This document shows positions 10,056 through 63,848 of a stretch of DNA of 64,000 nucleotides, in pieces (positions within the stretch are counted from its first letter, which is position 1; each line of letters begins with the position of its first letter). A model generated the notes under the pieces. It did not search any database. It had not been told where the DNA came from and saw only the letters and a list, made by a program, of their open reading frames with translations. Where the stretch lies: assembly GCA_963924565.1 (NCBI GenBank), contig OZ004608.1, positions 7,440,001-7,504,000 on the forward strand. Direction: 5' to 3'. The translations under genes and the position numbers were made by a program. This DNA is from Ascidiella aspersa. Taxonomy: Eukaryota.

Positions 10056-10862
10056 TCGAAAATAAGGTTAACCGATTATAACAGTTTACGTTTTATTGCA
10101 TGACAATGACTTATCTTCGACTGGATTTTCTATTTTTCGCAAATTATTGACTTGGAACTTTAAAACCAAAACAAATAGTGCCTCGAATATTGAGACAGAG
10201 CTGAGCAAAAGTGTAGAGCACATGTACAAGAACCTATATTTGCTGGTTTATTTTAGGGTACACATCAACCCGCTAAATTAGTGTGATAGCTATTAAATAA
10301 TAAGCTAATTTTTAATTTAAAATTTTTTTTTATGTAAACATTTTGTTGTCGTCAACTTTTGTATGTCGATTCATTAGAAACGTTTTGTACACTCACATGG
10401 TCAAAATTCTCTACGTAAAATATTCGCCAAACAAGGATACAACTCTTTAAATAGAAAATGTGCAATGCTATAATTAAGGTGTAGTCTTCTACTTAACCAC
10501 CCTCTCGAAAAACTACACCCGATTGTTTGAGTTTTGGTTACAAGTTTACAGGCGAATATATAACAATGAGAAGAAGTGAAAGTTATTTAGAACGCAGAGT
10601 ATGACTGTGGAACAAGGATAGTTTAAATAGCATAAGTAAAGAATATATTGGAGAACCTAGAGGCTTAGCAAAAGGGTGGAAAATTTACATGTCAGATGTT
10701 AGAAAAGATAAAACACTAATTTAACTGGAGAAGTCTTTTTCTTAAGGAGTTGTATTTAATTTAATGTAATGAAATAAGTATAATCTTTAAATGTTTGCTT
10801 GAGCTTAATTATACTACTTTGAGTTTCATGTGACATTTACCACAGCCTCTCAGGTATTAGAA

Positions 10863-13496
10863 ATGGAAAGTTTGCGTATCTTGATGTTATGTAGTGTGAT
10901 GGGATGTGGTTACACTGTTACCTGGCATGCATTTGGTGATTACGAGTACTACATTTCACCAAGTAATATTACATTTCAACAAAACTTCAGTGGAGCTCAA
11001 TTAACTTGTAACGCAATGAACGCAAGCCTGGCGAAAGTAAACACCAACGATATTCAACAGTTTCTGAGCAAAACTATTACCAACACGCCAGGTAAAATAA
11101 ACTTCCTGTAAATCCTGTTATGTTATTTACAGTACATAAAACAAAATCTTGTCAATTTTTATAGGCTCTATACATGCACTTTACATCGGTTTAAAATGGA
11201 ATGAATCAAGAAATGAATACCACTGGCTTGATGGAGCAATATTGGATGTGTCTCATTGGGGAACAGGGCAACCAAGCCACAATGAGACATGTGTTGCCAT
11301 GGCAAATTATATCAGTTATTTGTGGGATGATGTTTCCTGTGAGGATTTGACGTCATACATTTGTTCAAAATACTCTGGTACTTGTTTGTACTCGTTTTAG
11401 TGGGTCTAAAAGAATAAATAGTTATGGTAAAAATATAAAAACTAAACAAATGTAAATGTAATAGTTGTATTACAGAAGAAACGATTTTACATTATTAGGT
11501 ATAAGCAATAAAGAAAATGAATCTTAAATGATATATAGATTTGTTTGTTTACTGGTTAGATATTTAGTCTAAAAAATAGGTTTAACGGGAAAGTATAGTA
11601 CCTCCCATTTGACACGATGTTGTATCAGTAGGCTTAAAAGTTGTGCTAATTATTATTAGCATATCATGTCTAGTTGAATAATCGAGTCTCCATCAACAGA
11701 AAGAACCACAACAGATATTGCAACAAGCGAAATGACACCTTCAGCTACACATGCTGAAACAACAGACGAGTTCAAAGCCACAACCCTTAATTCAGGTACA
11801 TAACCCAACAAGTCTACAACCTTTATTGCTAAACTCGTCTGAAATAACCGATATGGGTAACTACAATATTTTTGTCACGCTGTCACATTCCTAACTGACA
11901 CAAAACACAGTCGACGATCGTTCTTTATTACGTGACTTTTCGTTTTGGTTGTTAAGATGTTCTTTTAGTCTTACACTTCGCACGTTTATCGACTCTCAGA
12001 ACGAATGATACATTATTTCATTGAAATTTTTTTGAATGTAAGGTGGTATAGACGGCATATAATATATTTTTATATTTCCGAAAAAAATGATATCATTTGC
12101 TAAAACATGGTACAGAAGTCAAGTTTTTTGTCATCCAGCATAACAATGCTAAATATGTATTAACAGTACATTTAATGCAGGCAAAACAACAGCAACAGCA
12201 ACTATGGCAACACAATTAACAACAACATCAACAATTGCAAGTCCAGGTACATAGCTCGGGATTTCGTTTCGTAATTAAAAGTACAAAAACAAAGTTTGTT
12301 TGAAATAACTTTCTAGACTGCTTAGCGATTGTGTGCCGTTAAGAAATTTCCCCAAAATAATATAATTGATAACAAAAGATTAATAGTCCGTCTTATTTCA
12401 TGAACTAAGAAACCTTTAAAGCTTTAAATTAATTGATAACGTTAGATTAAAATGCATATGAAAATTATTGTTCTGATCAAACAAAGAACGTTCTTGTATT
12501 TAAAGTAGGATGCTGTTCATGTCACACTGATGATGAATTGAGTCTTACAACAATAATTCTGACCCACAAAAAAACTTTTACTTTACGTAGAATGCTGTTC
12601 ATGTGCTAATGATGACTTAAGTCTTACAACAATAATTTTGACTGCTGTTACTTCCGGAGTCGTATTTATTTGCATCGTTGAATCACTCGTCATTTGGAAA
12701 ATGTAAGTGGTTTCGAAATCGACATAAATTGTTAAAAGTTGGTTGACTTATAATGTTCATTCTAGGACACGTAACGGGAACGTAAATAATCTAGCACCTC
12801 CGAAAGTCGACTATACAGGTTTGGATTTTCTAAATTGGTTGTAAATATTCAATTAAGTTGCTGTATTTTAAAATAATCAAATACAGGTATTGTTACTGTT
12901 GTACTGAACTATCTCGTGGGATGTATCTTAATGTGTAGACATGTTGATGTTTGCGGCCGAAACACTTAAACTATGTCCAGCATAGTCACGAACAAGTTAA
13001 TTTGTGTTCACAGAAAATTCGTAGTCGCCTATGAAAATATATTGTGATATATATTTGCGCATTTCATTAATATATGTATAAGCATTTTTGTCTCGTCTTT
13101 TGTTAGCAGTTTATAAATTATTACCGCGAATATTTTAAGGATATATAAAGTTGTGTTACCGCTACGATTTTTGACGAATCTGTCTGTTTAGTGTTTTGAC
13201 AGATGTAAAAAGTGTCCAAAATGTGCTATGCACTGTGTTTTTTTGACTGTTCGGTAAACGTTGCGAACTTTGCCTTCTCTTAAAATTACAATGCTATACG
13301 TTAGAGTTGATGTGCACTTCTTGCAGAACGGCAGGTAAACTTTGACGTCGAACCAAAGCAAAACACAAACGTAAAACAACCAAACAAGCCACTACCGTTC
13401 GAAGAAGATGATTCAGGTTACCTTAAACCCCACTCGACTTATCCGCTTCAAAACCTGGAAGATGACCAAGGCTACATCGAGTTTTCCCCTTCTTAA
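10863..13496 (+). CDS. G2: type I CTLD-mucin-TM receptor, short-tail class (CCSC, TM Glu, DxGY motifs), about 312 aa
   Basis: Exons 10863-11091, 11165-11377, 11700-11795, 12181-12246, 12591-12702, 12766-12818, 13327-13496. CTLD QPS/WDD; TM exon ECCSCANDDLSLTTIILTAVTSGVVFICIVESLVIWKM; tail EEDDSGYLKP...EDDQGYIEFSPS*. Confidence 0.88.
12500..12645 (+). repeat. Two-copy tandem repeat (82-bp period) spanning the G2 TM-exon acceptor
   Basis: AG acceptors end at 12508 and 12590, each followed by (g/a)atgctgttcatgt...agtcttacaacaataatt. Confidence 0.9.
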
Positions 13497-16400
13497 CGGC
13501 AGCTAGATCGTGGATTCAAAGTTAAACGCACATGAACAAACACGAATCAACGTGAAAACGATTTGTCCAAAAACGAAATGTATACTTATCTAAATTTTCG
13601 ATTTCCTGACATGTATAATACTGCTGATTAACGTTATTGGGCATCTTATTATTGTTGATATTTCACAGCATAAGCAGTAAAATGTAGCGATGTTTCTTTA
13701 CTGCAAATAGCGACAATTTTACTACTTAATTAAACATAACGCGTTGGTTTAAAATGCTGATATAATCGTTTGTATTTTTGCAAGAATTTGTATGGTATTG
13801 TAATAACAATCAGTTGAAATGACTTGCAATATACAGTAGGTTTTATCCTGGAAACAAATCGCATAGTTGCCTCTACAAATTATACATACACAGGAGCCAC
13901 AAGACAAATCTATGATTGTACAATGTTTACTGTATAAGTGAAAGTAGATTTATTTTGACATCATATATAAATTGTTTTATCTTGTTTAGTTTTATGTAAA
14001 GTATGTTTAGCAGCGTTAATAATTAATTTACCACGAACAGTATAAAATTCCAGGATGTTTAAAAACCGATTCAGGTCAGAACATTCTTCAAGGTACAACT
14101 TTTCAACAATACATATCAAAAACTACTACAAAAGCGCAAAAACGTTAATTTGAACTTGAAATCAAATTTTAGTTTTGACCATATGATCGTTGGAAAAACA
14201 TTAAAGTTAGCAATTTCACCGCTTTACCAAAATCTTGTTAGAAAAAAATTACGGTTTGCTTTGCACTCATGCTTGTACACAATTCTACCACAGATTTAAA
14301 TTTGAGTATCCGGCCCGCGGCTTATTTCTGCTAAAATGCATATAAGCAAAAATAAGGGCAAGTTTCTAAACATTTGGTTGTACGGTATCTTAAACACTCT
14401 TTCCCGTAAAACTATATTTTTAGCCTGTCTTAAATCCTAAAATGGAAATTATTTTCAAGCTTCGCGCGAATTCCTTCTGTCTTTCTCGTAAGTGGACGCA
14501 ATTTTTTGGCATCTTTAGAGACAAAAACCGTCCTCTGCTTATGGTGAATTCCCTAACGAAAGTTTACAAACTTATCCCAATATTTATATACCTTTTGCGC
14601 TTCGGTCGAATGCATTCCGTCGTTAAATTTTGAACTAAATACCAGCCGTTTTGAAAACTCTGAAACATAGTTATTTACATGTTGCCAACCTAATTTACTT
14701 AATGAACCCGTTTTATACCGTCTTTGCAATATGGCCGTTGTACCGCAAGTGATACATCGGAAACTTAAAGCCTTAAAAGCCCCCCAAAAAAACATTGTAA
14801 GTTTTTGTGAGAAATTTTTACGTATTTTAATCTTAACTTTTAGGTCAAGGCGCCCCACGACTTGATAAATGCCAATATATCAACAAGATATGTAGTCTAC
14901 ATTTTTATCTGTGCTCAATGCGTCACGGTCCCCTTATAAATCTAAATTAAAGTTGGCATTTCAAAACAAATGTAGTCGAAATTGTTTCGCTCTTCGCGTG
15001 TAGTCCTCTTTAAATTAAGCTTAAATAGCATATTTTAGCACAACTACAAACGTAATAACAGGTTCGTTAGCTTATTTGTTTTAAGCCATCAGAGCATGAC
15101 GTCATATTGCATGTAATTGAGATCTTTTTTTTGACCTGGCCTGCCACAGCATTTTAAGTTTTTTGTGCGGCATAAATAATTGCCCACCCCTGCCCAAGAG
15201 CATTCCTTTCAGGCGGACTTTATTGCCTGTACGGATTTGCTAAATCAAACTTTGGATATAACTTTAACGCATACGCGATATATTTACAATAATGTAGATA
15301 CACGTAACCCTAGTAGGCACAATGCCGAAATGTCTAACGTCAGGGACATTGTATAGCTTTCATTATTATTGTGTATTTCGATGTATTTTTGAACGAATGA
15401 AAGTTTGCTATGACTTACAAGTTAACTATGGACTTCAATTGATTTCGTTTACAACTGACTTTGTGACTCATCTTTGAGATAAAACGACTTAACTTTTTAT
15501 TTAGTTTTCATCGAATATTTGTATGGTTAGATGTAGTCATTACTTGAAAGGCACTAAAGGCAGTTTTAGTATTTGCACCAAACCGTTTTGGTGATACTTA
15601 TTAAAAATCGATATTTTGATGTTTAAAAACGTTTCGGCTATACCTCATGCATTTTTACAATGATGATGGCATGGGGTATTGCCGAAACGTTTGTGTACAC
15701 CGAAATGTCGATTTGAACGAATATGAAGTTAACCGACTTTAAAAGTATAACGTTTTATTTGCATGACAGTGACTCTTCGATTTAATTTTCTAATTTTGGC
15801 AAATTATTGACTTGGAGCTACAAAAACAAAACAAATAGTCCCTTGCATATTGAGACAGAGCCGAGGAAAAGTGGAGAGTACTTGTACAACAACCTACTTT
15901 ATGATTGCGAGTTTATTTTAGGGTACACATCAACCCGCTAAATTAGTGTTATAGATATTAAATAATAAGGTAATTTTTATTTGACAAAAATAGTTTTATG
16001 TATAACATTTCGTTGTCAACTTTTGTATGTCGATTCATTAGAAACATTTTGTACACCCACACGGTCCGAATCCTCTACGTGAAATAATAGCCAAACAAGG
16101 ATACGACCCTTTAAATAGAAAATCTGCAATGCTATAATTAAGGTGTTATCAGTGTTCTACTTAACTACCTTCTCGAAAAACTACACCCGCTTGTTTGAGT
16201 TTTGGTCACAAGTTTACAGGCGAATATATAACAATGAGAAGAAGTGAAAGTGATTTAGAACGCAGAGTATGACTGTGGAACAAGGATAGTTTAAATAGCA
16301 ATAAAACATAAGTAAATAATCCATTGGAGAACGTACAGGCTTGGCAAAATTGTAGCAAATTTTCATGTGAGATGTTACAAAAAATAAAACACTAATTTAA

Positions 16401-16539
16401 CTGAAGAAGTCTTTTTCTTAAGGAGTTGTATCTAATTTATGGTAATGTAAGTAAGTACAAGCTTTAAATGTTTGCCTGAGCTTAATTATGCTACTTTGAG
16501 TTTCATGTGATATTTACCACAGTCTCTTAAGTCTTAGAA

Positions 16540-19500
16540 ATGGAAAGTTTGCGTATCTTGATGTTATGTAGTGTGATGGGAAGTGGTTGCACTGTTACCT
16601 GGCATGCATTTGGTGATTACGAGTACTACATTTCACCAAGTAATATTACATTTCAACAAAATTTCAGTGGAGCTCAATCAGCTTGTAACGCAATGAACGC
16701 AAGCCTGGCGAAAGTAAACGCCAACGATATTCAACAGTTTCTGAGCAAAACTATTACCAACACGTCAGGTAAAATAAACTTCCTGTAAATCCTATTATGT
16801 TATTTGCAGTACATAAAACAAAATCTAGTCAATTTTTATAGGCTCTATTCATGCACTTTACATCGGTTTAAAATGGAATGATTCAACAAATGAATACAAC
16901 TGGCTTGATGGAGCCATATTGGAGGTGTCTCATTGGGGACCAGGGCAACCTAGCCACAATGAGACATGTGTTGCAATGGCAAAGTATACCAGTTATTTGT
17001 GGGATGATGTTTCCTGTGAGGATTTGACGTCATACATTTGTTCAAAATACTCTGGTACATGTTTGTACTCGTTTTAGTGGGTTTAAAAAAAAAATAATTA
17101 TGGTAAAATTATAAAAAAACTATAAACAAATATAAATGCAATAGTTGTATTACAGAAGAAACGATTTTACATGATTAGGTATAAGCAATAAAGAAAATGA
17201 ATCTTAAATGATATATTTGTTTTTTTTTGTGTATACTGGTTAAAATTCTAGTCTAAAAAACAGGTTTAACGGGAAAGTATAGTGCCTCCCATTTGACACG
17301 ATGTTGTATCAGTAGGGTTAAAAGTTGTGCTAATTATTATTAACATATCATGTCTAGTTGAATAATCGAGTCTCCATCAACAGAAAGAACCACAACAGAT
17401 ATTGCAACAAGCGAAATGACACCTTCAGCTACACATGCTGAAACAACAGACGAGATCAAAGCCACAACCCTTAGTTCAGGTACATAACCCAACAAGTATA
17501 CCTCTATAATTTAACAAAGTTACAACCTTTATTGCTAAACTCGTCTGAAATAACCGATATGGGTAAGTAAATTATTTTTGTCACTCTGTGACATTCCTGA
17601 CTAACACAAAACACAGCAAACGATCGTTCTTTATTACGTGACTTTTCGTTTTGGTTGTTAAGATGTTCTTTTAGTCTTACATTTCGTACGTGTATACTCT
17701 CAGAACGAATGATACATTATTTCATTGACATTTTTTTAATGTAAGGTGGTATAGACGGCATATGATATATTTTTATATTTCCGAAAAAAATTATATCATT
17801 TGCTAATACATGGTATAGAAGTCAAGTGTTTTGTCATCCAGCATAACAATGCTAAATATGTATTAACAGTACATTTAATGCAGGCAAAACAACAGCAACA
17901 ACAATTCTGGCAACACAATTAACATCAACAATTTCAAGTCCAGGTACACAGCTCGGGATTTCGTGTTTTAATGTAAAGTACAAAAACAAAGAAAAAGTTT
18001 GTTAGAAATAACTTTCTAGACTGCTTAGCGATTGTGTGCCGTTTAGACATTTCCAAAAATAATTTACCCAATTGACAAGTAAGAAACCTATAATGCGTCA
18101 AATTAATTTATAACATTAGCTTAAAATGCACAACGAAATTATTGTTGCAACCTGTTCTAATCAAACGAAAAACGTTCTTGTAGTTAAAGTAGGGTGCTGT
18201 ACATGTGCTAATGATGATCTAAGTGTTACAACAATAACTCTGACCCATGAAAAAACTTTTACTGTACGTAGAATGATGTCCATGTGCTAATGATGACCTA
18301 AGTCTTACAACAATAATTCTGACCCATGAAAAAACTTTTACTGTACGTAGAATGCTGACCATGTGCTAATGATGACCTAAGTCTTACAACGATAATTCTG
18401 ACCCACGAAAAAACTTTTACTGTACGTAGAATGCTGTTTATGTGCAAATGATGGCCTAAGTCTTACAACAATAATTCTGACTGCTGTTATTTCCGGAGTC
18501 GTATTAATTTGCATCGTGGAATCGCTCGTCATTTGGAAAATGTAAGTGGTTCCGAAATCGCCATAAATTGTTAAAAGTTGGTTGATTTATAACGTTAATC
18601 ATTCCAGGACACGCAACGGAAACGTCAATACACTGGCACCTCTGAAAGTGGACTACACAGGTATGGATTTTTTTTTAATTTTATTGAATATATCCAATAG
18701 GGTTGTAGTATTTTAAAATAGCGTCAAATGCTGTTAATTGTTTCTTAGTTACACATATTGTAGTAATTTTACCACTGAAATTGTATTGTTGTACTAAAAT
18801 CTTTCGGTGATGTAGCTTTGTATTTGTAAGCATGCTCGTGTTTGCGGCCATTACACTTAAAATATGGCCAGCAAAATCACGAACAAGTTAATTTGTGTTC
18901 ACCAAAGATTCATAGGGCACAGTCGCCTATGAAAATGCATAGTGAATGAAAAAAATATGAGTCGTTATAGATGACGCGTTATTTTCTTTAGCTATTAACA
19001 AATGACCAAAATATATTGCTCCACACAAAAATAGAAAATATTGTTTCTGTCTTGGTCGGAACAAAATGTATTCCCTATTAAGACGAAACTGAAAACTTAT
19101 TGGCGATGAAAAGTTCATTTATAAATTCGATTGACATGCTTTTAACCAACGTTTCAGGCAACCTATTTAAGTCTCCTTGAGCAAAATGCTTAACAATTAC
19201 AAGAAGAGCTGTTTTTAATTAATATTATGTATAAGAGTGTTGACTTTTTTTGATAAGAATTTATTTAGTAGATTGTAACCGCGAATATTTTAAGTTAAGC
19301 TAACTGCCGCGATTTTTGACAAACGTGTTTTTTCAGTGATTCCACAAATGTGTTTTGCTATTATTGGGTTTTATCTTACCTAGAACTATTAACACTGATC
19401 TATATTAGGTGTAAAAAGAGTTCGATAGGTTTGACGTACTGTTGTACTGAGTATTTTTTAACCGTTGGCAATACGTTATGAAGTTTGCCTTCTTCTTAAT

Positions 19501-19712
19501 GACAGTGCTATAGGCTATAGAGTTGATTTTGATTTATTGCAGAACGCCAGGTGAACCTTGAAAATGAACCAAAGCAAAACACTAATGTGAAAAAACCAAA
19601 CAAGCCTCTACGGTTTGACGAAGACGAGTCAGGTTACCTTAAACCTAATTCGCACTTCCCCCTTCAACATCTGGAAGATGACCAAGGCTACATCGAGTTT
19701 TCCCCTTCTTAG
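16540..19712 (+). CDS. G3: recent duplicate of G2, short-tail-class CTLD receptor, about 310 aa
   Basis: Exons 16540-16768, 16842-17054, 17384-17479, 17884-17943, 18430-18541, 18608-18660, 19543-19712. TM exon ECCLCANDGLSLTTIILTAVISGVVLICIVESLVIWKM; tail DEDESGYLKP...EDDQGYIEFSPS*. Confidence 0.88.
18185..18482 (+). repeat. 79-bp tandem repeat (4 acceptor-bearing copies) spanning the G3 TM-exon acceptor
   Basis: AG acceptors end at 18192, 18271, 18350 and 18429, an exact 79-bp period. Confidence 0.92.
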
Positions 19713-21524
19713 AGGCAGCGGGATCATTGAATGAAAGTTAAACGCAGGAAAACACGAACACAACGTGAAAAAGATTTGTCCCAATTCCAAACATGTATAT
19801 TTATCTAATCGATTTTCAATTTCGTGACGTGTACTGATGGTTAGCGTTAAGAGGCATCTATTTTTTGTTGATATTTCATAACGTAAGTATAGTAAAATAT
19901 AGCGAGTTATCTCTAATTCAAATTGCAACATATTTCAATCCTCATTTAAACATAACGCGTCGTTTTTCAATACTTAAATAATCTGTTTTGTTTTCTAAAC
20001 TTTAGCGAAGTTGTATGGTATAATAATAAAAATCAGTTTAAATGACTTCACAATTGTTACTGAAACATAAATTTGACTATGTTCAAACTTTGCATTTTTA
20101 TAATTGTCTTTCCACAAATGCACCCACAAGAGCCTCGTACAAATATATGATTGTAACATGTTCATTATTTAAGTAAAAGTAGTTTTTTTGGCACCACATA
20201 TAAATTATTCATCTTGCTGTTTTTCGTTGAACGTATTGTGTAGTTCACCAGCGTTAATATACTAATCTATTAGCTTATGACTGTAAATACGCAAATGAGA
20301 TTTTCAATTCGCCCTACTCGTATAATCTCAAAACGCTGATTGTATAACATTCGCGCTTGTTGCTTTTAGAATTGCAAAATATGGAAAATATAATGTTTGA
20401 ATCGTTAAATGTTTGACGAAAGAGTACCGCGGTATCTGGGAAACATTGAACTGAAGTACTAGGTTTAGTGTAGAACACATACCACCGTATTTTACCAAGC
20501 AATATGAAGTCAATGACCGAGGTCGTTATAGTCTGAATTTAACGTATAAGGTATAAAGCTGGCCTTAATTGCGTAATTGTTTTGGTTTGTCGCTTAATGG
20601 CTTCCGACGTGTCGTTGAAAAGTATATTTAGTTTAAGCTTGTTCTCAGCAAACAGTATATCAGCTCCGGCTTTTTTTACTTAGCCATAAGTGAGGCATTA
20701 GTTACTTATTAGAGACCAAGGTAGACTGATATTAGTTTATTAAAATATTTTGAAAGTTTTAATAAAAACTAATTCAAAGGGTTGATTGTTTTAAAAATTT
20801 TGAATGCCGTAATCAAAAGCGAACATGAAAAAAAAATTCTAATGTTTATGTGAGATATAAGAACTTTTGTAAATGTTCTACTTATTTTGTACAACATATA
20901 TACTGCAGCCAGAGAATTAATGCCTATACCTTCAGTTTATTCCTTGTCAAATATGTTTAACGCTGTAAGTCTTACGACCGACTCTCCCAGCACGTTGACG
21001 TTGCGTGGCTCGATAACACACATTAGGTAAATATTATCGACCTCAGCCAAGAAGTTAAAGTTGTTTACCATGTCGTTCAGGAACTTTCAGTAGAACCCCG
21101 GAAATCGCAGAACACCAGAAGTCGACAGGGCGATCTAATGTCAGGTCAGCTCTCTATAGTGTGAATATTTAAAGACAGATATTTGAATTTTTAGGCTTAA
21201 ACTTGTACTGAAACATACATATTCTGTTATCAAAACCCCTTGGAGTGTACTGGACAACGATAATGGCACCCATATATAGCACACAAGATGCCCACGGCTT
21301 ACAGAAATCAATTTGTAGAAAACCAAATATAAGGCTATAGGGCGAGGTTGGAACTCACGTCCAACTTCCGGTCATACCGCGACCGTTCTATATTATTTTG
21401 TTTCAATTTCTCTCCAAAAATATCTTATGGACGGCTCTATATGCAGCGATATTTAGAGCAGCTCAATATATTCGTTATGAATTTTTTCTCTTTTATTGTG
21501 TATGCAGATAGTCAGGTCATCGAA

Positions 21525-22036
21525 ATGAACTATTTACTGTTAATGACGCTTTGCTGCTTGGTGGGAAACTGTTACTCAGCAACCTGGTATACTTTGGGTG
21601 ACTATGAATATCACATTTCACCGAGAAATATCAACTACCAAGAAAATTTTGACGGAGCTCTTTCTGCTTGCAACGCGATGAATGCAACCCTGGCCAAAGT
21701 TAACACCAATGAGATTCAACAGTTTTTAACTGAAAAAATAAACAGCTTACCATGTAAGTTTACCTCTAATCAGAAGACATTTAGAAGTATGCAACTAAAA
21801 AGTATTACTCTCTTTCAGTTGATCCAAGTTTTTCAGTGATGTTTTACATCGGTCTTCACAGGAGTACTGACGAATATAACTGGTTGGATGGGACGATGTT
21901 GGATGTGGCTCAGTGGGGAACTGGGCAACCAAGTAGTGATTACGAATGTGTTGTGATGGAAAGAAATCTCCGGTATTTGTGGGAAGATATACAATGCGAC
22001 ACTTGGACCTCTTATATATGTTCCAGACATGTTTAA
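21525..22036 (+). CDS. G4: secreted single-domain C-type lectin (signal peptide + CTLD only), about 148 aa
   Basis: Exons 21525-21753 and 21819-22036. The CTLD is complete (FYIGL, QPS, WED, 4 Cys) and ends YICSRHV* at TAA 22034-22036, where paralogs have a splice donor. Confidence 0.8.
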
Positions 22037-26273: not shown

Positions 26274-29200
26274 ATGGAATGTATTTACTTAATACCTCTA
26301 TTTAGTTTGGTTGGAAGTGGTTACTGTAATACGTGGCACTCTTTTGAAAGCCACAAGTATTACATTTCAACAAAGGCACAAAACTTTGATGGAGCTCAGT
26401 CGGCTTGCAACGCTTTAAATGCCACCCTCGCAAAAGTTAACACCAACGAGATTCAACAGTTTCTGGCCAACACCACTAACAGCACTTCAGGTAAATATAT
26501 GTTTAAAAACATCATAGTTTTGCAAAGTATGGTTAATATTCGACCTGGTTATCTTTTAGATCTTTGGAGCGCATTCTACATCGGTTTAAAGGGGAACACA
26601 TCTACAAATCAATACCATTGGTTGGATGAAACTATGTTGAATGTGTCCCAGTGGGGATCAGGGCAGCCAAATCACAACCAGACATGTGTTGTGATGTCAA
26701 AGAAAATCAGTTATTTGTGGGATGATGTTTTCTGTAGCTTTATAAGCAACTTTATTTGTTCAAAACTGACCGGTATGCTTGTTAATCGTTTAGTTGTATT
26801 ATTCAGTTAATTTGAAATGTTTTTTTTAATAACGGTATATACAATTTTTTTAACGATAAATAGAGAAATTTGATACAAATATAAAAAATAAGAACTGTGT
26901 GGCAAATATGTACAATAAGTAGTATGAAAACATTTGCCAGGTCTGTTTGCTTAGTAACAATCCCAATAGAAAATTATACCAGGGATGCGCTATTTGACGC
27001 ATGGCCTACGTTAATCTCCGAAAAATCCTCACCAAAACAGAAAATCGCAATTTTTTATTGAAATTATCACGTTTGCAAAGTGCATGGAATAATTGCGAAA
27101 CGGTGTGGGCATGAATTGCAAACCTAGTTTCCTTTGCAATTTTCCCAACTATACGAAATATACAACGCTACTATCGTTTGTCCAACCAACACAGAACAAA
27201 CAACAACACCAACTGTGAAACACGAAACAACAACAATGATATCGACCAGTGGTTCAGGTTAGTGAACAAACGACTTTTAACTCAATCAACAATAAAACAG
27301 ATACAAACTAATTTCACTTTAAATTTAAAACATTCTTCCAAATGGAAATATATATATATATCAGGGTATTGGTGAGAAGTTAAAAAAGTAAACTTTCAGA
27401 AAGTAACATGTTGAAGTTTGCCAGTGCGACACATATGAGTAATGTAAATTTGTATTTTTACGATTCAATGGTAATTGCCTTCACCAATAAAATCATCTCA
27501 ATTTCTAAAGCAGGGGTTCTTAACCAGGAGTACGTGTACCCCTTGTTGGTACGAAGCACCAAAGCAGGGGTACGACATGCAGTGTGAAATTATGTGTTAT
27601 TTAGGCATATTTGGGAAGAATGCGTAATTTACGAAAAGCAACAACAAAAAGCCATTAGTGAATTTTCTGATTGTTCGTTTTAAATATTGTGGAACATGCA
27701 AGACTGCTTTTAATGCATACATTCAACACATATGTTCAAAATACATTGATTTTAATTCCTATTATTACAATTTTATACTCTTCCGTTGGCCATTAGACAG
27801 GGGTTACGAGAAAATTTCATAAAACCTTAAAGGGTACGAGCGCTAAAAGGTTAAGAAACCCTGATCTAAAACTTAAATTTTACCTTTTATTTTTCCAAAA
27901 AAACAACCGTCCTTCCACAATCACCGCGAAATATCACCGGAACAGAAATGCTTTCATCGATGGCCGCTTCTACGACTATTGGGACAACAATAACATCAGC
28001 ATCAAATCCTTTAACTACAGACGAAATAACACAGAGGCCAGGTAAAACCAGTGGACGTTGAATGAAGCGAAATTTTAAAGTGTGCCTGAGGGACATTATT
28101 GGTAAAAGGATTTTGTCCATTTACGATACAATTAACAAATGCACAATTCCACGATATTTATAGGCCAGTGCTTCGCAACCTTTTTTGGCTTGCGGCGTCC
28201 TACAGAAATAATTAATAGTTTGCGGCACCCTTGCTCGTAACGTTACAATTTCCGAGATTGAAACAACATATTAACTGTGCAACAAGGTTGATAGATTTTT
28301 TTACTTATTGGCACTTTTATCGTACACAAAAAATTGTATCAATAAGTTTATAAATAAAGCAAACATTGGAACCTATACAGAATTTAAAATATCTCTCATC
28401 ATATTTGAGCGTTAAAAATCGCACCCTTGTGCCGCGGCACCCCGGTTAAGAACCACTAAAATGGGCGTTTTTTTAACCCTAAAATACAGGTTGCTTTCTA
28501 AAATAAAACAATCATTTTTCCACAACCTATTACAGCAACAGTATCAGAAAAATCGTCATCCATGGCCGCGTCTACAACTATTGGAACAACTGTGACGTCA
28601 GCTATCAATTCTCTAACTACAAAAGAACAAACATCGAATCCAGGTAAACAGTGGTCCAGAGATATAAGTTTGAAATAACATATTTAGTACAATCGCAACA
28701 TGACAAACAATTGCTTTGAAGGCAACTAGTTTAAGGAAGTTTTACTATATGGTTGTAACAATAGTGTTTGTACCAGATTGCAGTTCTTGTAGCAAGCACA
28801 ACTACGGAATTCTGATCATTATTTTAGCCGTTATGAATTGCGGCATGGTATTGATTTGCATCATCGAAGCTCTTGTGATATGCAAAATGTAAGTGTAAAG
28901 GATACCTCAGTATTTGTAACATATCTACTGTAGTTGCAGTTTTAATTACTCTAGTCGACGAACTACTTATTTTTTAATAACTTTACTTTAATCTAGTATT
29001 GTAGGCAAAATGACTTAACCTACAGATGTAATTTACTTAGGCAAATTACTTATCAAAATCAAATTTTAACCCAGTAATTACATTGGGGCTTTATTTTATT
29101 TTTACAAGGTATTCCAATGGTATGATAGTGTACAAAACTGAATATGGGTTTTACATGATATATCACCTTAGAAAACAACAGAGAACAGCGGACCCTATTC

Positions 29201-34379: not shown

Positions 34380-37300
34380 ATGAAATATTTGTTTACAACG
34401 ATTATCTGCTGCTGTTTAATAGAAAAACGTTTTGGGCACGTTTTTGCTAATTACGTAACCTGGCACGCTTTTGGTAACTACGAGTATCACATTTCAACAA
34501 AGGGCGCTTTCTTTAATGGAGCTCAGTCAGCTTGCAAAGCAATGGATGCAAATCTGGCCAAAGTAAACAGCAGTGATATTCAACAATTTCTGACCTTCAC
34601 TATTGACAATATGCCAGGTAAAATAAAATAATTATAAACTGTCATAAATTTGTCCACAACAACTAACTGATGATGATTGTCAGGTTTTTTAAATGCACTT
34701 TACATCGGTTTAAAGTGGAATATTACAACAATTTCTTACCACAATCGCAGGATAAGATACTTATTTGAACTATAATTATTTTTATTTAACAGTACATGTT
34801 AAAATTTCCTAGGTTCTCCAAATACACTTTACATCGGTTTAAAGTGGAACGGTTCGACGACAAAATACCACTGGCTTGATGGAACGGTGTCAGATGTGGC
34901 TCAGTGGGGAACAAATCAACCAAGCAGGAATGATAAATGTGTTGTTATGTACAAGAACGACGGTTATTTGTGGGACGATGTGCGATGCGATACTAGCACA
35001 GCATCGATATGTTCAAAATACTCAAGTATGTATTTAAAACAAAATTAGTCAATTTAAACCAACAAACGTAGTTCGACTTTGTAGCATGTTTCGCTAGATA
35101 TACGTTGCCTATAATGAGTGTGAAAAGAAGGACCTAAATGTCTGCCAACTTGAACTAGGATAATTGTATAATTTACTCGCTTACTCGTGTTCAAATTTCA
35201 AATTTTTTACTTGCTACCACAAAGTAATAATGATATTGGAACTGTTTGGTTTAATATTAAAATCTCGCACTGTAATTGGCTGAGAATGTATTTTCCACTT
35301 CAAAAAACAAATTTGAAGCTTAAGTTGCCAAAAAATAAATTTTAACATGTTTATGGCAATGTTTAGCGGGCGGGCGTATGGTCTAAAACTAACACAGAAA
35401 GATTTTGGTGGACCCAGATAAAAGATTAGTTTAATTAGACAATGCTTTTTATTTCAATGAGACAATTCTACCAATCAAATGGTCCTAAATACATCAATTA
35501 TATTGAAAATGTGTAATCCTTGTACAGAGCAATCGTCCACAACAGGACAATCGGATATACTGGTAACAAAACCAACAATAGATCAAGAAACGACATATGG
35601 TTCAGGTAATATAACCGAGCAAACTCGTTTCGTAGGCAATTTTCGTAATACAATAGCACTTTAGATACTGGATAAAAGGCGTACAGAATTAACTTTGGTG
35701 TATATAACGGTAATCAAGCTAAAACGAAAAGTTAAAAAACTAAATCGCTTTTTGTCTGTTCTTTCGAAATCTATTAAATACTGAAATACATAAATTTGTA
35801 CTCGTTCATACATCATAAAGTATTTGAGCATAATTATTAAATATGGTTTTGAGACTTTTAAGTTTAATATTGTTTCGCTACATATTAAAAACGTTTTTTA
35901 TAATTCTAATAGTTCATGTTTGACTATCCAGTTGCCTTAAAGTTGGTAGTTAAAATAGTTATTTAACAAAATAAACTTTTCTGATGTGGTAAAACATATT
36001 GTACAGCTAGAAATACGAGTCCTACTAAAGGCGACACTTCAGTTGATGACGATGGAGATCTTACAGTTATCATAGTTGCCGTTATTTGCTCGGTTTTATT
36101 CGTTTGCATCCTGGTGGCGTTCGTAATATACCGAAGGTAATTTACGATATTTTAAACAATCAAAAGAAAAAAGTTAACTAAGCAATATCCAAATTGCGTT
36201 GCAGGAAATGCCATACAGAAGACAAATCACAGATGCCCGTTACGGATAATGGTAGGTGACTAATCATACCAGAAATAACCAAATTCTGCCAAGTGTAGTA
36301 AATAATGCTAACTTCGAAAGTGCCTATCTTTGTTTAATTTAAAGTTGAACTGTGGAATCTCACAAATTATGTTGGAGGAAAGTATGTAGAAATTTGTAAC
36401 CTGGGTTTGCCAATTATGTTAAAGTTTAGTATGGGCACTAGGCTTTTAAGTTGGAGATTTTTTTGTTCTCGTTCGTTAGTACATGTATTGTGTTGTGCAA
36501 AATATGAAAAACATGTGGAATGTTCTGAATTCGTATTATAGCTAGATAAAATTTCTTAGTTATATAACGATAAGTTACAACAGTGTACTTCTAATCTAGC
36601 ACACGAACACTGATAAAAAACATTTTAATAAACATCATTTTGTTGTAAAACGGTTAACGCCACTAATTGATAAATTAGTATTATTGTCCGTTATTCCGTT
36701 AAATCGTCATGATCTTGATGATTTACGCGCACGGTATGTTTGATGCCAAAATATCCACGTTTTCCAAACCAATTTTATCCGGTTATGCTTGATTTCATTA
36801 TCATGCAAACTTTCAACATCTTTTACCGATTGCAGAGCAGCACGTGTACGCCGACATCGATTACAACAACGTCAATTCCAGGCGTTCACACCACCACTAC
36901 TCCACCATTCACCACGTGGATGCTACAACTTTGGACGCCAACACAGCAGATGGGGAATACTCCCAACTGAACCTGGCGGAACTCCCCTTGGCATACCCCA
37001 TCTGTAACATGGAGCCGAAAGAGCCTCGACTGAGTGTGGATTACAGCTCAACAAATGTGGAACAGAAAGTGCCACACGAAACGAAACGCGTTCCCGCTTA
37101 CGCCACGGTAAACAAAGGTACCGCAACTGTTTTTGTAAGATCCTTTTAGTTCTAAACAATCATATGCTCGAAATAGTATCGACATTCTTGCTTATCAAGG
37201 CGCTAGATTTTATATCTGTTTACCTGACAAATTAGACTGTATTAGTTGCGAATTGCCAGCAACGTTTATTCAGAAATTTTAAAATTTTATTAAATAAAAA

Positions 37301-38370: not shown

Positions 38371-41300
38371 ATGAAATATTTGCTTTTAATTATACTTGTT
38401 CGGTGGGAAATTGTTTCTGTGTTAATTGGCACGCATTTGGCAACAACGAGTACTACATTTCAACAAATGTGCAAAACTTTGATGGAGCTCAGTCAGCTTG
38501 CCACGCAATGGATGCAAATCTGGCAAAAGTAAACACCAGTGAGATTCAACAGTTTTTGACCGACGCAATTAACAACATGCCAGGTAGAATGAAACAATTA
38601 TAAACTGTCATAAAGTTGTCCGCAACAAGTAACTGATGATGATTTTCAGGTTCTGTAATTACGCTTTACATCGGTTGAAAGTGGAACGCATCAACAGATA
38701 TATATCACTGGTTTGATGGAACGATGTTGGATGTTGCTCAGTGGGCACCAGGACAACCAAACAGTATTTCACACGAATGTGTTGTGATGTCAAAGTACCT
38801 CGGTTATTTATGGGATGATCGACCATGCGATACTTGGACCTCCTACATATGTTCCAGATACTGGGGTAATATGTTATTTTTTACACATTTGTGGAATGAT
38901 ACGCGATGCGATAATTGGAATTTAAATATGTGTGGAAAATGTTGTGGTACGTTGGTGATATGTGAGGTATATTTTACGCCTGATGACAAAGTTTGATCAT
39001 TTTTATAACTATTAAATAATTTTGCATTTAAGAACAACTAAATAATGTTGCGTTTGAATTTCACTTTTAATTAAAAACCACAATTTTTCACTGACGATGA
39101 TATAACGTTCAAATCTCAGGAAGGCTATTATCCTTTAAATCATCTTAAGCAGGATAATAATAAAAACAAATATTACCTAAAATAAAGTAATATTGCTATC
39201 TAAACATAAGAGCATATACAAAAAGGGGTGTTGGTGTATTATTAATATAAATATTACTTTAATAGCAGCTAAGATATTTCCAAGGCAGGCCCCTAATTTA
39301 ACAACGAGATTCGATTAGCGATTTGAGTGATATAATACCAGCTTCTATTGTCCAAAACACTTACTCGCAAATGTTTTCCAAGAGCTGCCCAGCAGGGTTG
39401 CAGGCACACAAATGGCATGTGCTGGGGAATGTTTGCTTGAATGTCCAACTTTTGGTAAAGAACGAACAACATTGGGTGTCCAACTGCTAGACCTGCAGAA
39501 AAACACTAAATGTCCTTTTGTCGTGTTTTACCATCAAGTTTGTCGCTCAACAATAAGCAATTGGCTGAATATACCTCAATCTTGAGCATCAGTTACGATT
39601 TTACTTTGTTCTAAAAGTTACAGTCAGGGCCGTTTTATGTCTTGAAGAGGCCCTAAGGTTAAGCACTTAAAATTTCGGCGCCCTATACGTTTTATTTTAA
39701 ATTTAAACACAAATATGCTGTTTTCAATCTCATTATTGATATATATTAAACTTTGGGTCGCGACACAGCAGGATAATGTTAACCTACTTTAAATAATAAG
39801 CTCAGAATGCATATCACGAGATGTTTTGATAGAGCGTAAACCCAAAAATCAAAAAACACAAACCTTTCCACAAAGTCGGTGCGGGGCCTTTGCCAAAAAA
39901 ATTGTGAAATACTTTTTTTTGTTTCGCAACTAAGGATAGAGTTCTTTTTGCTTCGAAGTTATTTTTTGGAAAATATTACAAAAAATATTTAATGAAAAAC
40001 AAGCTTTCTAACGCTAAAGCTAATTTTTATCTATAGTAAAAACATAACCCTTGCTCGTTTTACTTATTAAATTTTGCTTTTTTGACCGAACTAATTGGGT
40101 GGTTTGTGAATCACAAATGCACTAAAATCCCTAGTCTTGAATATCAATGGTAGATTTTTTGTTCCAAAATATTTATGTATGATCATGTTGTCGATTTAAC
40201 ATTTATTAATAGCTTTTTGTTTTAGATAACAGTTTTGTGGGATGCCCTACGCAAACGACAGTTACGTTTGTCTTGGATTTACTGAGACAGAATGAATCAT
40301 GAACAGTTGAAAAATACTTTAAAATTTATGTTACTCTCATCTACAGTGCAATCTACGCCGGAACCAACCACAGGAGAATCACCTACGCCAGAACCATTCA
40401 TGACAGAACCATCTACGCCAGAACCATTCATGACAGAACCATCTACACCAGAACCATCAGCAACAGTCACATTACCTATTGCTGCAACCACGTTTTCATC
40501 CGACAAACCTGCAGTAGGCATTTCAACCATACCATGTTCGGGTAACAAAGCAGGGAATTAATGTTTGTTTAGTTTGGTAACTATAACGTTGCTTGCGAAA
40601 ACTAAATAATTTGATAAATATATCAAACATGTTTGTTGGTCAAACTTTAAGACATGCAAAATAAATGGATAATCAAAAATCCGATTTTTTTTTTATAAAA
40701 TGTACTTCATGTTTTAGTTTCAAGTTTCATGTCCACGAAAGGCGATACTTCAAGTGATGACGAGGGTGGTATTACGACTATCATTGTCGCCGTCGTTTGT
40801 TCGATTGCATTTGTTTGCATTGTGCTGGCTTTTGTGGTATTAAGAGGGTAAGCAATTTCAACTCAAATACGGTTAATGAAAGTGTTATAGTTTTTTTTTA
40901 TTTGTTTCAGAATATGCAGTCAAACTGAAAAATCAGCGAAGACGCCAACAAACATAGGTAAGACCAATTATATATTTACCTAAATCGAATCGTTTGTTTT
41001 GCAATATAAGTGATATTCATGATTTATCTACAAACACATAAAATGAGACATTTCTTTTGTTGCCACTTGTTTTATTTGTTCATTAGTGACAGAGTATGGC
41101 GGGCATAGTACCTAAGGATTCCTTCTTTGAACCAACGCGACACATGCGTTCCAGCTTCATAAATGTAGTCCCTTCGTTAACCGTAATATTATTACGTCTA
41201 TCAAGGTGCAATATTCTCTATCGATTACAGATGAACACCTGTACGCCGATATCGACGAAACCAAGATCGGATACAGGCGCCCGAGTCACGAATACTCCAC

Positions 41301-52901: not shown

Positions 52902-53163
52902 GAGCTCGATCTAAAATAAAAAATGGAAATTTGTCCTAAATTGGCACTAGCTACTGACCCACAATTTAACAAGCCCGGCTAGAGAAAACAAGTATTTTAT
53001 CTAGTTGCAGGTTTGCTTTGTGCAAACGAAATATTATTGCAATAAATTCATTTTTGGTTGAATGAATAACAATGGTTTGTGCATATGGACGCTGTAAAAG
53101 ATGACAATATTTTTATTTTTATGTTTTGATATGTAAATTTAACAGGTATGTAGATGCACAAAA

Positions 53164-54287
53164 ATGCGGATAATTGTCTTTTTGATAACCTGCTGTTTCA
53201 TTGGTAAAAGTGCCAGTGACGCCTGGTACACTTTTGGTAGTTATAATTACAATATTTACACTTCTGGAAACAAGACGTTCGCCCAGCAGGCCTTTGCAGC
53301 TTGTAGCGCTTTTGGTGGTACACTGGCAAAAGTAAACACGACAGAAACACAGCAATTTTTGTCGACAAACTGAAAACGGTTGCTGGTAAATATACTTAAG
53401 TGTGAATTACTATAAAGGAAACTGTTCGTCAATACAATTTAAAAAACGAACGACAATACTTAAAACGCATATAGGGACGTTTTTCGTGGATGGTTTTCAA
53501 CAATGCTTTGTTTTATGTTGCAACGTAAATAACTTAAATGGAAATCATGATTAATTACAAATACCTTGATCAATACCAACCAAAACTATGCATGTACCGC
53601 AAGTAAGGAAAACATCCAATTTATTGGGTTGTCAATAATACTTCAGCGTTGTGCGAAGAACACAGTTTAAAAAAAGTACATTCGTTATGTATTAAAAAAT
53701 TTGTTTTAAATTAAATTCGATCTTGTTTTTCAAAATTTAACTTTATATAGCGTTTAAGCAATCATGAAGAAAGCGGTTATGTTTAGGGGACAAACAAAGC
53801 TTTGCTATCGGATTAAGGCGAGTAATCGGCACCAATATATTTCTGTGGTTGGACGGATTAATCGTGAAGTTTTCAGGATGGTGCGTTGGCGAACCGAACC
53901 ATTTTAGAAGGATTCAGGACTGTGTAATTATGAAGTAAGCAAGCCAGTTCACGTGGAATGACGTTGCCCGCAGCACGGAGCAACAATATATTTGTCAGAC
54001 CGACATCGGTATGTCTTTATGAAAAACATAAGTTTTGTCTGATAAAGTTAAACATGACGTATGTAATTTGCAGAACCAACTAAGAAGGCAAAGACACACA
54101 CAACTACTCAACCGATAGCCACGGTTGATATACAACAAAGAAACAACAGACGTTGCGCAAGAAACATCGGTCGATTTAACTGTAAAGCCATCCAGCAATA
54201 TTTCATCGACATCAGTCTTTCAGGTGACAAAGTTTTGGCGGGTCGATTTACAAACAGGGCTCGAGTGACATTACTAGCAATTTATAG
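53164..54287 (+). pseudogene. G9: CTLD pseudogene with EPN/WND motifs; no TM or tail exon found
   Basis: Exon 53164-53385 has a late frameshift (TGA 53371-53373). Exon 53787-54008 reads ...WCVGEPNHFRRIQDCVIMK*ASQFTWNDVAR..., with TAA at 53936-53938 and the third Cys replaced by Arg. The stalk exon from 54074 is frameshifted. Confidence 0.85.
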
Positions 54288-54998: not shown

Positions 54999-55338
54999 CA
55001 GGGCTGCGGAGACGGAGTCGGACTCGGGACTCGGAACTCGAGTAAGACCTTGCAAAACTACCGGAGTCCCGAGTCCGACATGCGCATGCGCAGTATCACA
55101 TTTTTAAACTGATATGGCCGCCAACTGGAAATTGTAAATGTGTAATAGCATATGGTGGAATATTTTCCATCCAAGTATTGTGAGTGGATAAGTTTTATGA
55201 CTACCCTATAAGTGGATTGCGGAATATCCACGTTATTTCAGTTACGTAAATTGGCGGAACACAGGCTGTAGAGTCAGGGCCGGACTCGGGACTCGGGAGT
55301 CGGACTCGGGTTAAGTTTAACGACTTACAACATACCTG
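54999..55338. mobile_element. hAT-type MITE (GGAGTCGGACTC family), copy 1
   Basis: Starts cagggctgcggag, has 8-bp flanking duplication CTTACAAC, and its internal sequence is collinear with 63276-63848. The right TIR is damaged. Confidence 0.8.
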
Positions 55339-63275: not shown

Positions 63276-63848
63276 CAGGTCTGCGGAGTCGGACTCGGGA
63301 CTCGGAACTCGAGGAGTTGGTTTGTTTTGCTGGAGTCGGACTCGGGACTCGAGTAAGACCAGGTAAAACTACCAGAGTCCCGAGTCCGACATGCATATGC
63401 GCAGTACCAAATTTTAAAACTGACATGGCTGCCAACCAGAATTTGTAAAGAGGGATAGCATATGGTGGAATATTTTCCAACCATGTATTGTGAGTGCATG
63501 AATTATACGACACCCCTATAGGTGGATAGCTGAATATCCATGTCATTTTAGTTACGTAACTTGGAAGAATGCAGGCTTTAGTGTTAAGGCCGGACTCGGG
63601 ACTCGACGAAATTGCACATTTGACCGGAGTCGGACTCGGGTTTAGTGTTTTGACCGGAATCGGACTCGGGAGTCGGACTCGGGTTTAGTGTTTTGACCGG
63701 AGTCGGACTCGGGAGTAGGACTCGGGAGTCGGACTCGGGAGTCGGACTCGGGAGTCGGACTCGGGTTTAGTGTTTTGACCGGAGTCGGACTCGGGAGTCG
63801 GACTCGGGAGTCGGACTCGGGTTACTTTTAACCGACTCCGCAGCCCTG
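63276..63848. mobile_element. hAT-type MITE (GGAGTCGGACTC family), copy 2, with expanded subterminal tandem array
   Basis: TIRs caggtctgcggagtcgg / ccgactccgcagccctg; flanks gcgtcagt / gcgtcaac; many GGAGTCGGACTCG units at 63590-63820. Confidence 0.88.

Follow-up and report, generated by a model that had tools for sequence, protein, structure and literature searches.

Two neighbouring receptor genes, G2 and G3, carry the splice acceptor of their transmembrane (TM) exon in several tandem copies, which raises the question of which of these acceptors is used, and whether their number has any bearing on the receptor that is made. The initial annotation of this locus had proposed that repeat number could set the ratio of membrane receptor to secreted lectin or degraded mRNA, and so damp an activating receptor. 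The window analysed here is a stretch of 64,000 nucleotides from a 308-Mb eukaryotic assembly (C2:7440001-7504000; G+C about 34%), and in it genes for type-I membrane proteins are clustered in tandem on the plus strand. These proteins begin with a signal peptide, followed by one C-type lectin domain (encoded by two exons), a Ser/Thr stalk, a TM segment with an exon of its own and a tail that carries tyrosines. The cluster extends into both flanks of the window.

The G3 tail has 28 matches on its own chromosome, and tails of a related acidic-tyrosine type (48-62% likeness over about 30 aa) are encoded by some 20 other genes on the minus strand at C2 5.88-6.35 Mb (L024-L029); these genes form a large receptor family on the same chromosome. 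Searches of protein databases with single exons (the receptor tail and lectin exon 2) gave no match, these being short-word searches and thus weak. Among the neighbours of the cluster are a secretin-family 7TM exon at L015:2-643 (-) and a GST N-terminal exon at L006:2104-2448 (+), and several copies of a dispersed element, whose internal repeats are of the GGAGTCGGACTCG type, are found within the cluster, at 55027-55295 and 63338-63821 of the window, at L010:9195-9337 and in L011.

Table 1. Coordinates, in window positions, of the genes, exons and acceptor units discussed in the text
Feature	Position	Strand	Remark
G3, 7-exon type-I receptor gene, 311 aa via last acceptor	16540..19712	+	open frame, GT-AG at all junctions
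G3 exons	16540-16768, 16842-17054, 17384-17479, 17884-17943, 18430-18541, 18608-18660, 19543-19712	+	
G3 exon 4, phase-1 donor feeding the acceptor array	17884..17943	+	
G2, paralogue of G3, 313 aa	10863..13496	+	open frame, GT-AG at all junctions
G3 unit 1, degenerate acceptor, exon-like part from 18193	18166..18244	+	score -3.39
G3 unit 2, intact acceptor 18272, TGA 18274-18276	18245..18323	+	score 1.55
G3 unit 3, intact acceptor 18351, TGA 18356-18358	18324..18402	+	score 1.55
G3 unit 4 + TM exon (18430-18541, 112 nt), sole TM-frame acceptor	18403..18541	+	score 1.55
G2 unit 1, weakened acceptor 12509	12482..12563	+	score 0.01
G2 unit 2 + TM exon (12591-12702, 112 nt)	12564..12702	+	score 2.19
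G5 TM exon, homologous, single acceptor, 112 nt	28777..28888	+	ancestral-state comparator
G6 lectin exon 2, separate duplicate of acceptor + exon start	34684..35025	+	

Both genes could be modelled completely (Table 1). The Pfam profile Lectin_C matches G3 exon 2 with 38.6 bits against a cut-off of 22.6 and exon 1 alone with 21.3 bits (E 0.0005), which is under the cut-off; neither the TM exon nor the tail nor the frame opened by the first acceptor copy matches a Pfam profile. A single TM segment follows the ectodomain (best 19-residue hydropathy 2.72 in G3 and 2.39 in G2), and the signal peptides were called by eye. Lectins that bind sugars in a Ca2+-dependent manner carry EPN or QPD plus WND motifs. 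These are absent from G2 and G3, which have QPS and WDD at the corresponding places, and sugar binding by the two proteins is therefore not established.

The tail tyrosines follow acidic runs (DDSGYLKP/DESGYLKP and DDQGYIEF). An ITAM consists of paired YxxL/I, and neither this pattern nor a hemITAM or ITIM was matched in the G2 and G3 tails, the latter two being taken as [E/D]x3-x-YxxL and I/L/V-x-YxxI/L/V from a study of Botryllus receptors (PMC12582321). Activating KIRs, according to PMC6288254, have a basic residue inside the TM segment for adaptor pairing; there is none inside the TM of G2, G3 or G5, where we find Glu, with Lys only at the cytoplasmic edge. Given that the hemITAM and ITAM patterns are unmatched and that the TM carries Glu and no basic residue, the description of the product as an activating receptor is not supported. 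A juxtamembrane Cys cluster together with the Glu in the TM is common to G2 (12591-12702), G3 (18430-18541) and G5 (28777-28888), other paralogues being unlike them in this respect, and may recall adaptor-type chains.

The repeated unit is 79-82 bp long and comprises the end of intron 4 (~27 nt) and the start of the TM exon (52 nt). G2 has two such units and G3 has four, at positions that match those originally described. The first bases after the acceptor AGs are 18193, 18272, 18351 and 18430 in G3 and, at a spacing of 82, 12509 and 12591 in G2; Tandem Repeats Finder reports a period of 79 with 3.6 copies and 92% matches at 18195-18481. Of ten TM exons checked in the window and its flanks, these two have the repeat. 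Derivation of the unit from an interspersed repeat was considered and rejected, as both the unit and the unit junction are confined to G2 and G3 in their own genome: a DNA search with the unit found two places, G3 and G2, and a 27-mer across the unit junction occurs at four places in 308 Mb, all inside the two arrays, with none for the reversed control.

To see what each acceptor would encode, products were translated from the phase-1 donors after 17943 (G3) and 12246 (G2). Copies 1, 2 and 3 of G3 run into a stop after RRMMSMC, E and EC, respectively, and G2 copy 1 does so after RRMLFMC, the copy-1 frames stopping at 18290 in G3 and at 12609 in G2. The TM frame was kept by one of 12 AGs tested in G3 and one of nine in G2, that of the last unit each time; a TM exon of 112 nt, and with it a complete protein (311 aa in G3, 313 aa in G2), results from 18430 and 12591 alone. 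The translations are identical to those on which the initial annotation had based its claim that the earlier acceptors stop before the membrane segment and the last alone gives the TM frame, and its further statement that Cys codons of copies 2 and 3 had become TGA is borne out by two separate changes at neighbouring Cys codons.

The early stops lie 251, 265 and 183 nt before the TM donor in G3 copies 1-3 and 93 nt before it in G2, with two junctions downstream. Under the 50-55 nt rule, a stop that far before an exon junction leads to decay of the mRNA, and the premature stop of a dedicated secreted isoform of the IgM type is followed by a separate poly(A) signal. There is no AATAAA or ATTAAA in G3 17944-19542, the search being for these two canonical hexamers; G2 has two ATTAAA (12274 and 12446), both upstream of unit 1. 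Given that no poly(A) signal follows the stops and that junctions lie downstream, early-stop mRNA is predicted to be degraded, so that any leak via the upstream acceptors would be lost and not yield a secreted product. An ectodomain could be secreted solely if such mRNA escapes decay, and with stops 93-265 nt before the next junction and neither hexamer in the G3 interval, secreted lectin is unlikely as the main outcome.

Two other outcomes for the early acceptors were considered and rejected. The copy-1 products lack a hydrophobic anchor, with hydropathy of 0.22 and 0.50, which speaks against copy 1 encoding a substitute anchor, be it a membrane segment or GPI. A cryptic donor in the array that would make a cassette exon was likewise dismissed, the sole GT[AG][AT]G in 18150-18560 being the real donor at 18542.

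We scored the acceptors with a rough matrix built from 50 acceptors of this cluster alone, related sites included and sites read by eye (leave-one-out median 2.64; decoy median -3.56). G3 unit 1 scores below all 50 leave-one-out true acceptors, and two other AGs between the branch-like motif and its AG, at 18184 and 18190, score -2.62 and -2.92; in G2 unit 1 the first AG after the branch-like motif is 12487, not 12509. Between -23 and +4 there is no difference among G3 copies 2-4, which accounts for their equal scores, and the three have a common branch-like motif at -29. The branch pattern is YTRAY, which CTGAC fits; such a motif precedes 21 of the 50 true acceptors and 28% of decoys and is weak evidence. 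By these scores there is one sound acceptor in G2 and there are three in G3, and G3 copies 2 and 3 could be competitors of the last one.

The view of the upstream acceptors as competitors is thus tenable for G3 copies 2 and 3, which are locally equal to the last site, but not for G2, whose upstream site is degenerate. Similarly, all four G3 acceptors were located, but they are not equal, copy 1 being degenerate, and the contrast of two against four holds for unit counts, whereas for sound acceptors it is really one against three.

The explanation that we consider probable is that the arrays arose by acceptor duplication of the kind known from human CBS 844ins68, with the last acceptor mainly used, the upstream copies spliced out as intron, and any leak passing into nonsense-mediated decay (NMD). 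The TM exon would be defined from its single donor, 18542, which would favour the nearest acceptor, as reported for CBS 844ins68, and growth or shrinkage of the array would then have little effect on the protein. If the last acceptor is mainly used, removal of the upstream copies as intron is the likely consequence. Use of the last acceptor is supported by the single-acceptor TM exon of G5, equally of 112 nt, and by the state of copy 1, which has a decoy-like score in G3, a low one in G2, and extra AGs before its own. Counting against it is the identity of G3 acceptors 2-4, so that local sequence cannot favour the last. The exons that acceptors 2 and 3 would open (270 and 191 nt) are also near in size to the internal exons of the cluster (213-282 nt), which again counts against it, and the two Cys-to-TGA changes in copies 2 and 3 may do so as well.

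Support for a distal site prevailing over its upstream copy comes from within the cluster. In G6 it is lectin exon 2 that has a duplicated acceptor: the upstream one, at 34684, continues a G7-like intron and is followed by ~37 nt of exon and a stop at 34775, while the complete exon begins at 34813, and by way of that acceptor the gene has an open frame. The upstream site scores higher (3.60 vs 0.98), and yet it is the downstream site that keeps the frame open, from which we infer that G6 splicing uses the distal site. Since half a lectin domain does not amount to a soluble receptor, such duplicates evidently arise and persist here without a membrane/soluble role.

Other members of the cluster have diverged in other ways. 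Lectin exon 2 of G4 (21819-22036) has a stop right after the domain and no donor, with stalk-like remnants near 23.9 kb, and G4 is a candidate for a naturally soluble lectin gene. Lectin exon 2 of G7 (38650-38863) has an in-frame TGA where its paralogues have Leu, and a lectin gene at 53147-54015 has in-frame stops in both lectin exons; G7 and the latter gene are likely pseudogenes. Two upstream paralogues (L008:6602-7800 and L009:4440-6094) combine a G1-type single-acceptor TM exon with a G2/G3-type tail (77-79% identical), likely through exon shuffling, and the TM donor of the former is GC, not GT.

The G5 exon also bears on how the arrays arose: given its single acceptor and the same 112 nt, a single acceptor is likely the ancestral state, continued in the last copy. 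G2 unit 1 and G3 unit 1 have 24 of 27 acceptor bases in common, and each has 15-17 of 27 in common with the later units, and G3 units 2, 3 and 4 share 26-27 of 27 among themselves. Because copy 1 is shared, with the same extra bases before the AG, the first duplication appears to be older than the G2/G3 split, and on this comparison G3 gained two units after it. A TTCT(G/A)A word is common to the intron just upstream of unit 1 and to exon positions +47 to +52, and slippage or unequal crossing-over between such words, 79-82 nt apart, may have given rise to the array. The duplication would have placed a branch-like CTGAC 29 nt before every new AG, so that each new unit would have been born as a complete acceptor.

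The two genes are mosaics with respect to each other, with synonymous divergence rising from 0.06 (lectin part) through 0.19 (TM exon) to 0.45 (tail), a pattern suggestive of recent gene conversion in their 5' halves. Over the 111 codons of TM and tail, with no stop, pS is 0.355 and pN 0.075, a ratio of 0.21 that spans all time since the G2/G3 split and not just the time since copies 2 and 3 arose; judged by this ratio, the last-acceptor product is under purifying selection. Divergence between G2 and G3 is 17% in the exon-like DNA of copy 1, 9.6% in the last copy and 12% in flanking intron, copy 1 thus changing at roughly the pace of intron. Synonymous and replacement changes number 3 and 6 in copy 1 and 3 and 2 in the last copy, a trend only (Fisher p 0.58), and coding constraint on copy 1 is not significant either way.

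Two of the three differences between G3 copies 2 and 3 make TGA at neighbouring Cys codons. Given that 7 of the 237 possible single changes in the unit make a stop, two TGA have a p of about 0.003, or 0.005 counting four events, a result that is post hoc and has n=2; selection may thus see these copies. The acceptor part, which is 27 of the 79 nt, has one of eight changes and is not significantly better kept (p 0.18).

These observations bear on the proposal of a selected dial between membrane and secreted forms, in which the loss of Cys codons from copies 2 and 3 would serve the release of a clean soluble ectodomain. The two separate TGA changes speak for it, as do the truncated products, which would retain lectin domain and stalk in full and lack an anchor, and the copy-1 frame, which is open to the same stop in both genes; a parallel exists in the possible soluble forms of KIR2DL4 and KIR3DL2 that arise by loss of the TM exon, as described in PMC6288254. 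However, decay is predicted from the two junctions downstream of the G3 stops and the missing poly(A) hexamer, copy 1 shows no coding constraint, the acceptor part is not significantly conserved, the TGA result has the limits just given and copy 3 still keeps one Cys, and the cluster already holds a candidate soluble lectin gene in G4. We consider a dial of this kind quite improbable.

Sequencing reads were consulted for evidence of acceptor use and of unit number, four of ten runs being aligned to 10500-20300 at 95% likeness, with ~6% of the RNA run X6 read. X6 gave 44 reads on the 9.8 kb, seven of which join G2 exon 6 to exon 7 as modelled, the first mate always on the minus strand; a G2-like allele is therefore expressed, and spliced downstream of the TM exon. 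In this ~6% of the run the depth is 0 at 17694-18347, no reads were counted at 12527, in G2 unit 1, or at 12599, near the start of the G2 TM exon, and none of the joints listed among the 44 reads connects exon 4 to the TM exon. Reads of X5 and X6 resemble G3 at exon 3, and from exon 4 onward they look like G2.

In X1, a 429-nt contig spans both G2 units with one difference, and contig depth over the G3 array is 42 and 60, like that of the flanks (43-87), with no excess. Reads of X5, a run from a different study, are present on both G2 units, where a variant base is seen in 12 of 12 and 11 of 11 reads, and reach ~10-fold over the G2 TM region against 6.3 expected; at 95% likeness they are absent from 17694-18347 and nearly so up to 18674. 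It is as if the TM regions of X5 were all G2-like, or as if a diverged G3 allele had been lost at this likeness.

That X5 raw reads are missing there, and that no contig or read among the pieces listed (611 others lay outside these) spans the G3 array, might suggest that the four-unit array is an assembly artefact. However, the G3 units differ from one another at 3-7 of 79 positions (3 between units 2 and 3, and 6-7 between each of these and unit 4), so that they are neither assembly echoes nor brand new; moreover, X1 contigs cover the array at flank-like depth, and the G2 pair is spanned by one X1 contig and seen in X5 reads. An artefact is accordingly highly improbable.

A different picture emerged from X2, where depth reaches 1755.6 at 18329 (bin mean 384.9), which fits a piece of ~64 nt at a depth of ~1670; this is 26-36 times that of a single-haplotype contig (47-65), or 14-17 times that of a two-haplotype one, but contig depth is not copy number. 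If depth tracks copies, X2 hints at a long array of 26-36 units, and given that the unit junction occurs nowhere else in the genome, a long array is the simplest reading. Variation in unit number between individuals is thus suggested, and the term copy-number-variable, which holds for the two paralogues with their two and four units, is for individuals a suggestion from contig depth. Contigs of X1 and X2 also join 12029 to 15816, and one X2 contig joins 15724 to 18665; these joins are either deletions within the G2/G3 pair or mis-joins via repeats and paralogy.

With long arrays in mind, one may ask whether intact upstream units take a share of splicing, their transcripts then decaying, so that unit number would lower the amount of membrane receptor; this would apply to G3-type arrays only, a long array would be a near-null allele, and dosage would be set via decay and not through a secreted product. 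The local identity of acceptors 2-4 in G3, the early stops 183-265 nt before the next junction, the X2 piece at ~1670 vs 47-65 (26-36 units if depth tracks copies) and the absence of the unit junction elsewhere in the genome are in accord with such a mechanism, and the ABCA7 VNTR provides a precedent for length-dependent splicing (PMC5954066). On the other hand, upstream-acceptor reads are missing among the X6 joints listed (44 reads, ~6% of the run), contig depth is not copy number and X1 shows no excess, CBS and G6 suggest that a distal site can win over an equal or stronger upstream site, and G2 lacks a sound competitor. We regard damping by decay as possible but unlikely. The more far-reaching proposal of an acceptor VNTR of 2 to ~30 units among individuals, each with a self-contained 3' splice site, branch motif and stop, the unit number being a heritable and graded control on how membrane receptor is balanced against decayed or secreted ectodomain, is in our estimation improbable.

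The favoured reading, predominant use of the last acceptor, draws on known systems. By analogy, the closest known case is human CBS c.844_845ins68, a tandem duplicate of 52 intron and 16 exon bases including the 3' splice site, for which two papers (PMC7490669, PMC2630376) report that the distal site is strongly favoured and that the upstream exon piece leaves with the intron, giving normal mRNA; the duplicated site is termed a 'donor' in one and a 3' splice site in the other. As there, the G2/G3 unit spans the end of an intron and the start of an exon including the AG, and the distal acceptor restores the normal frame and exon (112 nt as in G5). The systems differ in that CBS has one extra copy, whereas G3 has up to three and perhaps tens; in that the unit is 52 + 16 nt in CBS, compared with 27 nt of intron and 52 nt of exon with its own branch-like motif; and in that the G2/G3 unit, unlike that of CBS, lies just before a TM segment, so that upstream use would truncate the protein at the ectodomain. 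Moreover, distal use has been shown in mRNA for CBS, whereas for G2 and G3 it is predicted from the frame.

Other repeats resemble the arrays in part. In the intron-18 VNTR of ABCA7 the 25-bp unit starts with a splice donor, an extra site leads to a premature stop, and VNTR length measurably alters isoform ratios, according to PMC5954066. Each unit there has a splice site, as in G3, where units 2-4 are intact and equal and unit 1 is degenerate; however, the ABCA7 unit is a donor with a measured length effect, whereas the G3 unit is an acceptor whose length effect is putative. The FGG duplication, of 403 bp, likewise repeats an exon-intron junction in tandem and so sets up a rival splice site, as in G2 and G3, but it abolishes most normal splicing (PMC9052919), and is thus a counter-example in which a duplicate is not silent, the site being a donor there and an acceptor here.

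Among receptors, KIR2DL4 and KIR3DL2 are likewise clustered, immune-type and possibly made in soluble forms via splicing of the TM exon, but as reported (PMC6288254) they use exon skipping or cryptic donors at weak sites and have Ig domains, in contrast to the repeated acceptor and lectin domain of G2 and G3. The Botryllus FcoR proteins, compared here by description only, are Ig/Sushi receptors, some with a canonical ITIM or hemITAM; as described (PMC12582321) they are an invertebrate chordate multigene family of membrane receptors with acidic-tyrosine motifs, intergenic recombination and premature-stop splice variants, although with Ig and Sushi domains where G2 and G3 have a C-type lectin domain. 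Human tandem repeats linked to splicing have been catalogued (PMC10078293), and intronization after tandem duplication is known in Drosophila (PMC2891723). In a literature search that did not extend to most subscription journals, no repeated acceptor at a receptor TM exon was found, while the CBS-type duplicated acceptor is already known. The G2/G3 array is, then, real and of a known kind.

The array is a trap for gene annotation, and it can serve as a natural experiment on the choice that the spliceosome makes when identical acceptors follow one another, be it one, three or perhaps about thirty. If the last acceptor simply wins, the array is an ordinary, tolerated duplication. Should there be competition from the upstream units, repeat length would act as a dial on how much of an invertebrate immune-type receptor is made, and alleles would range from full to near-null.
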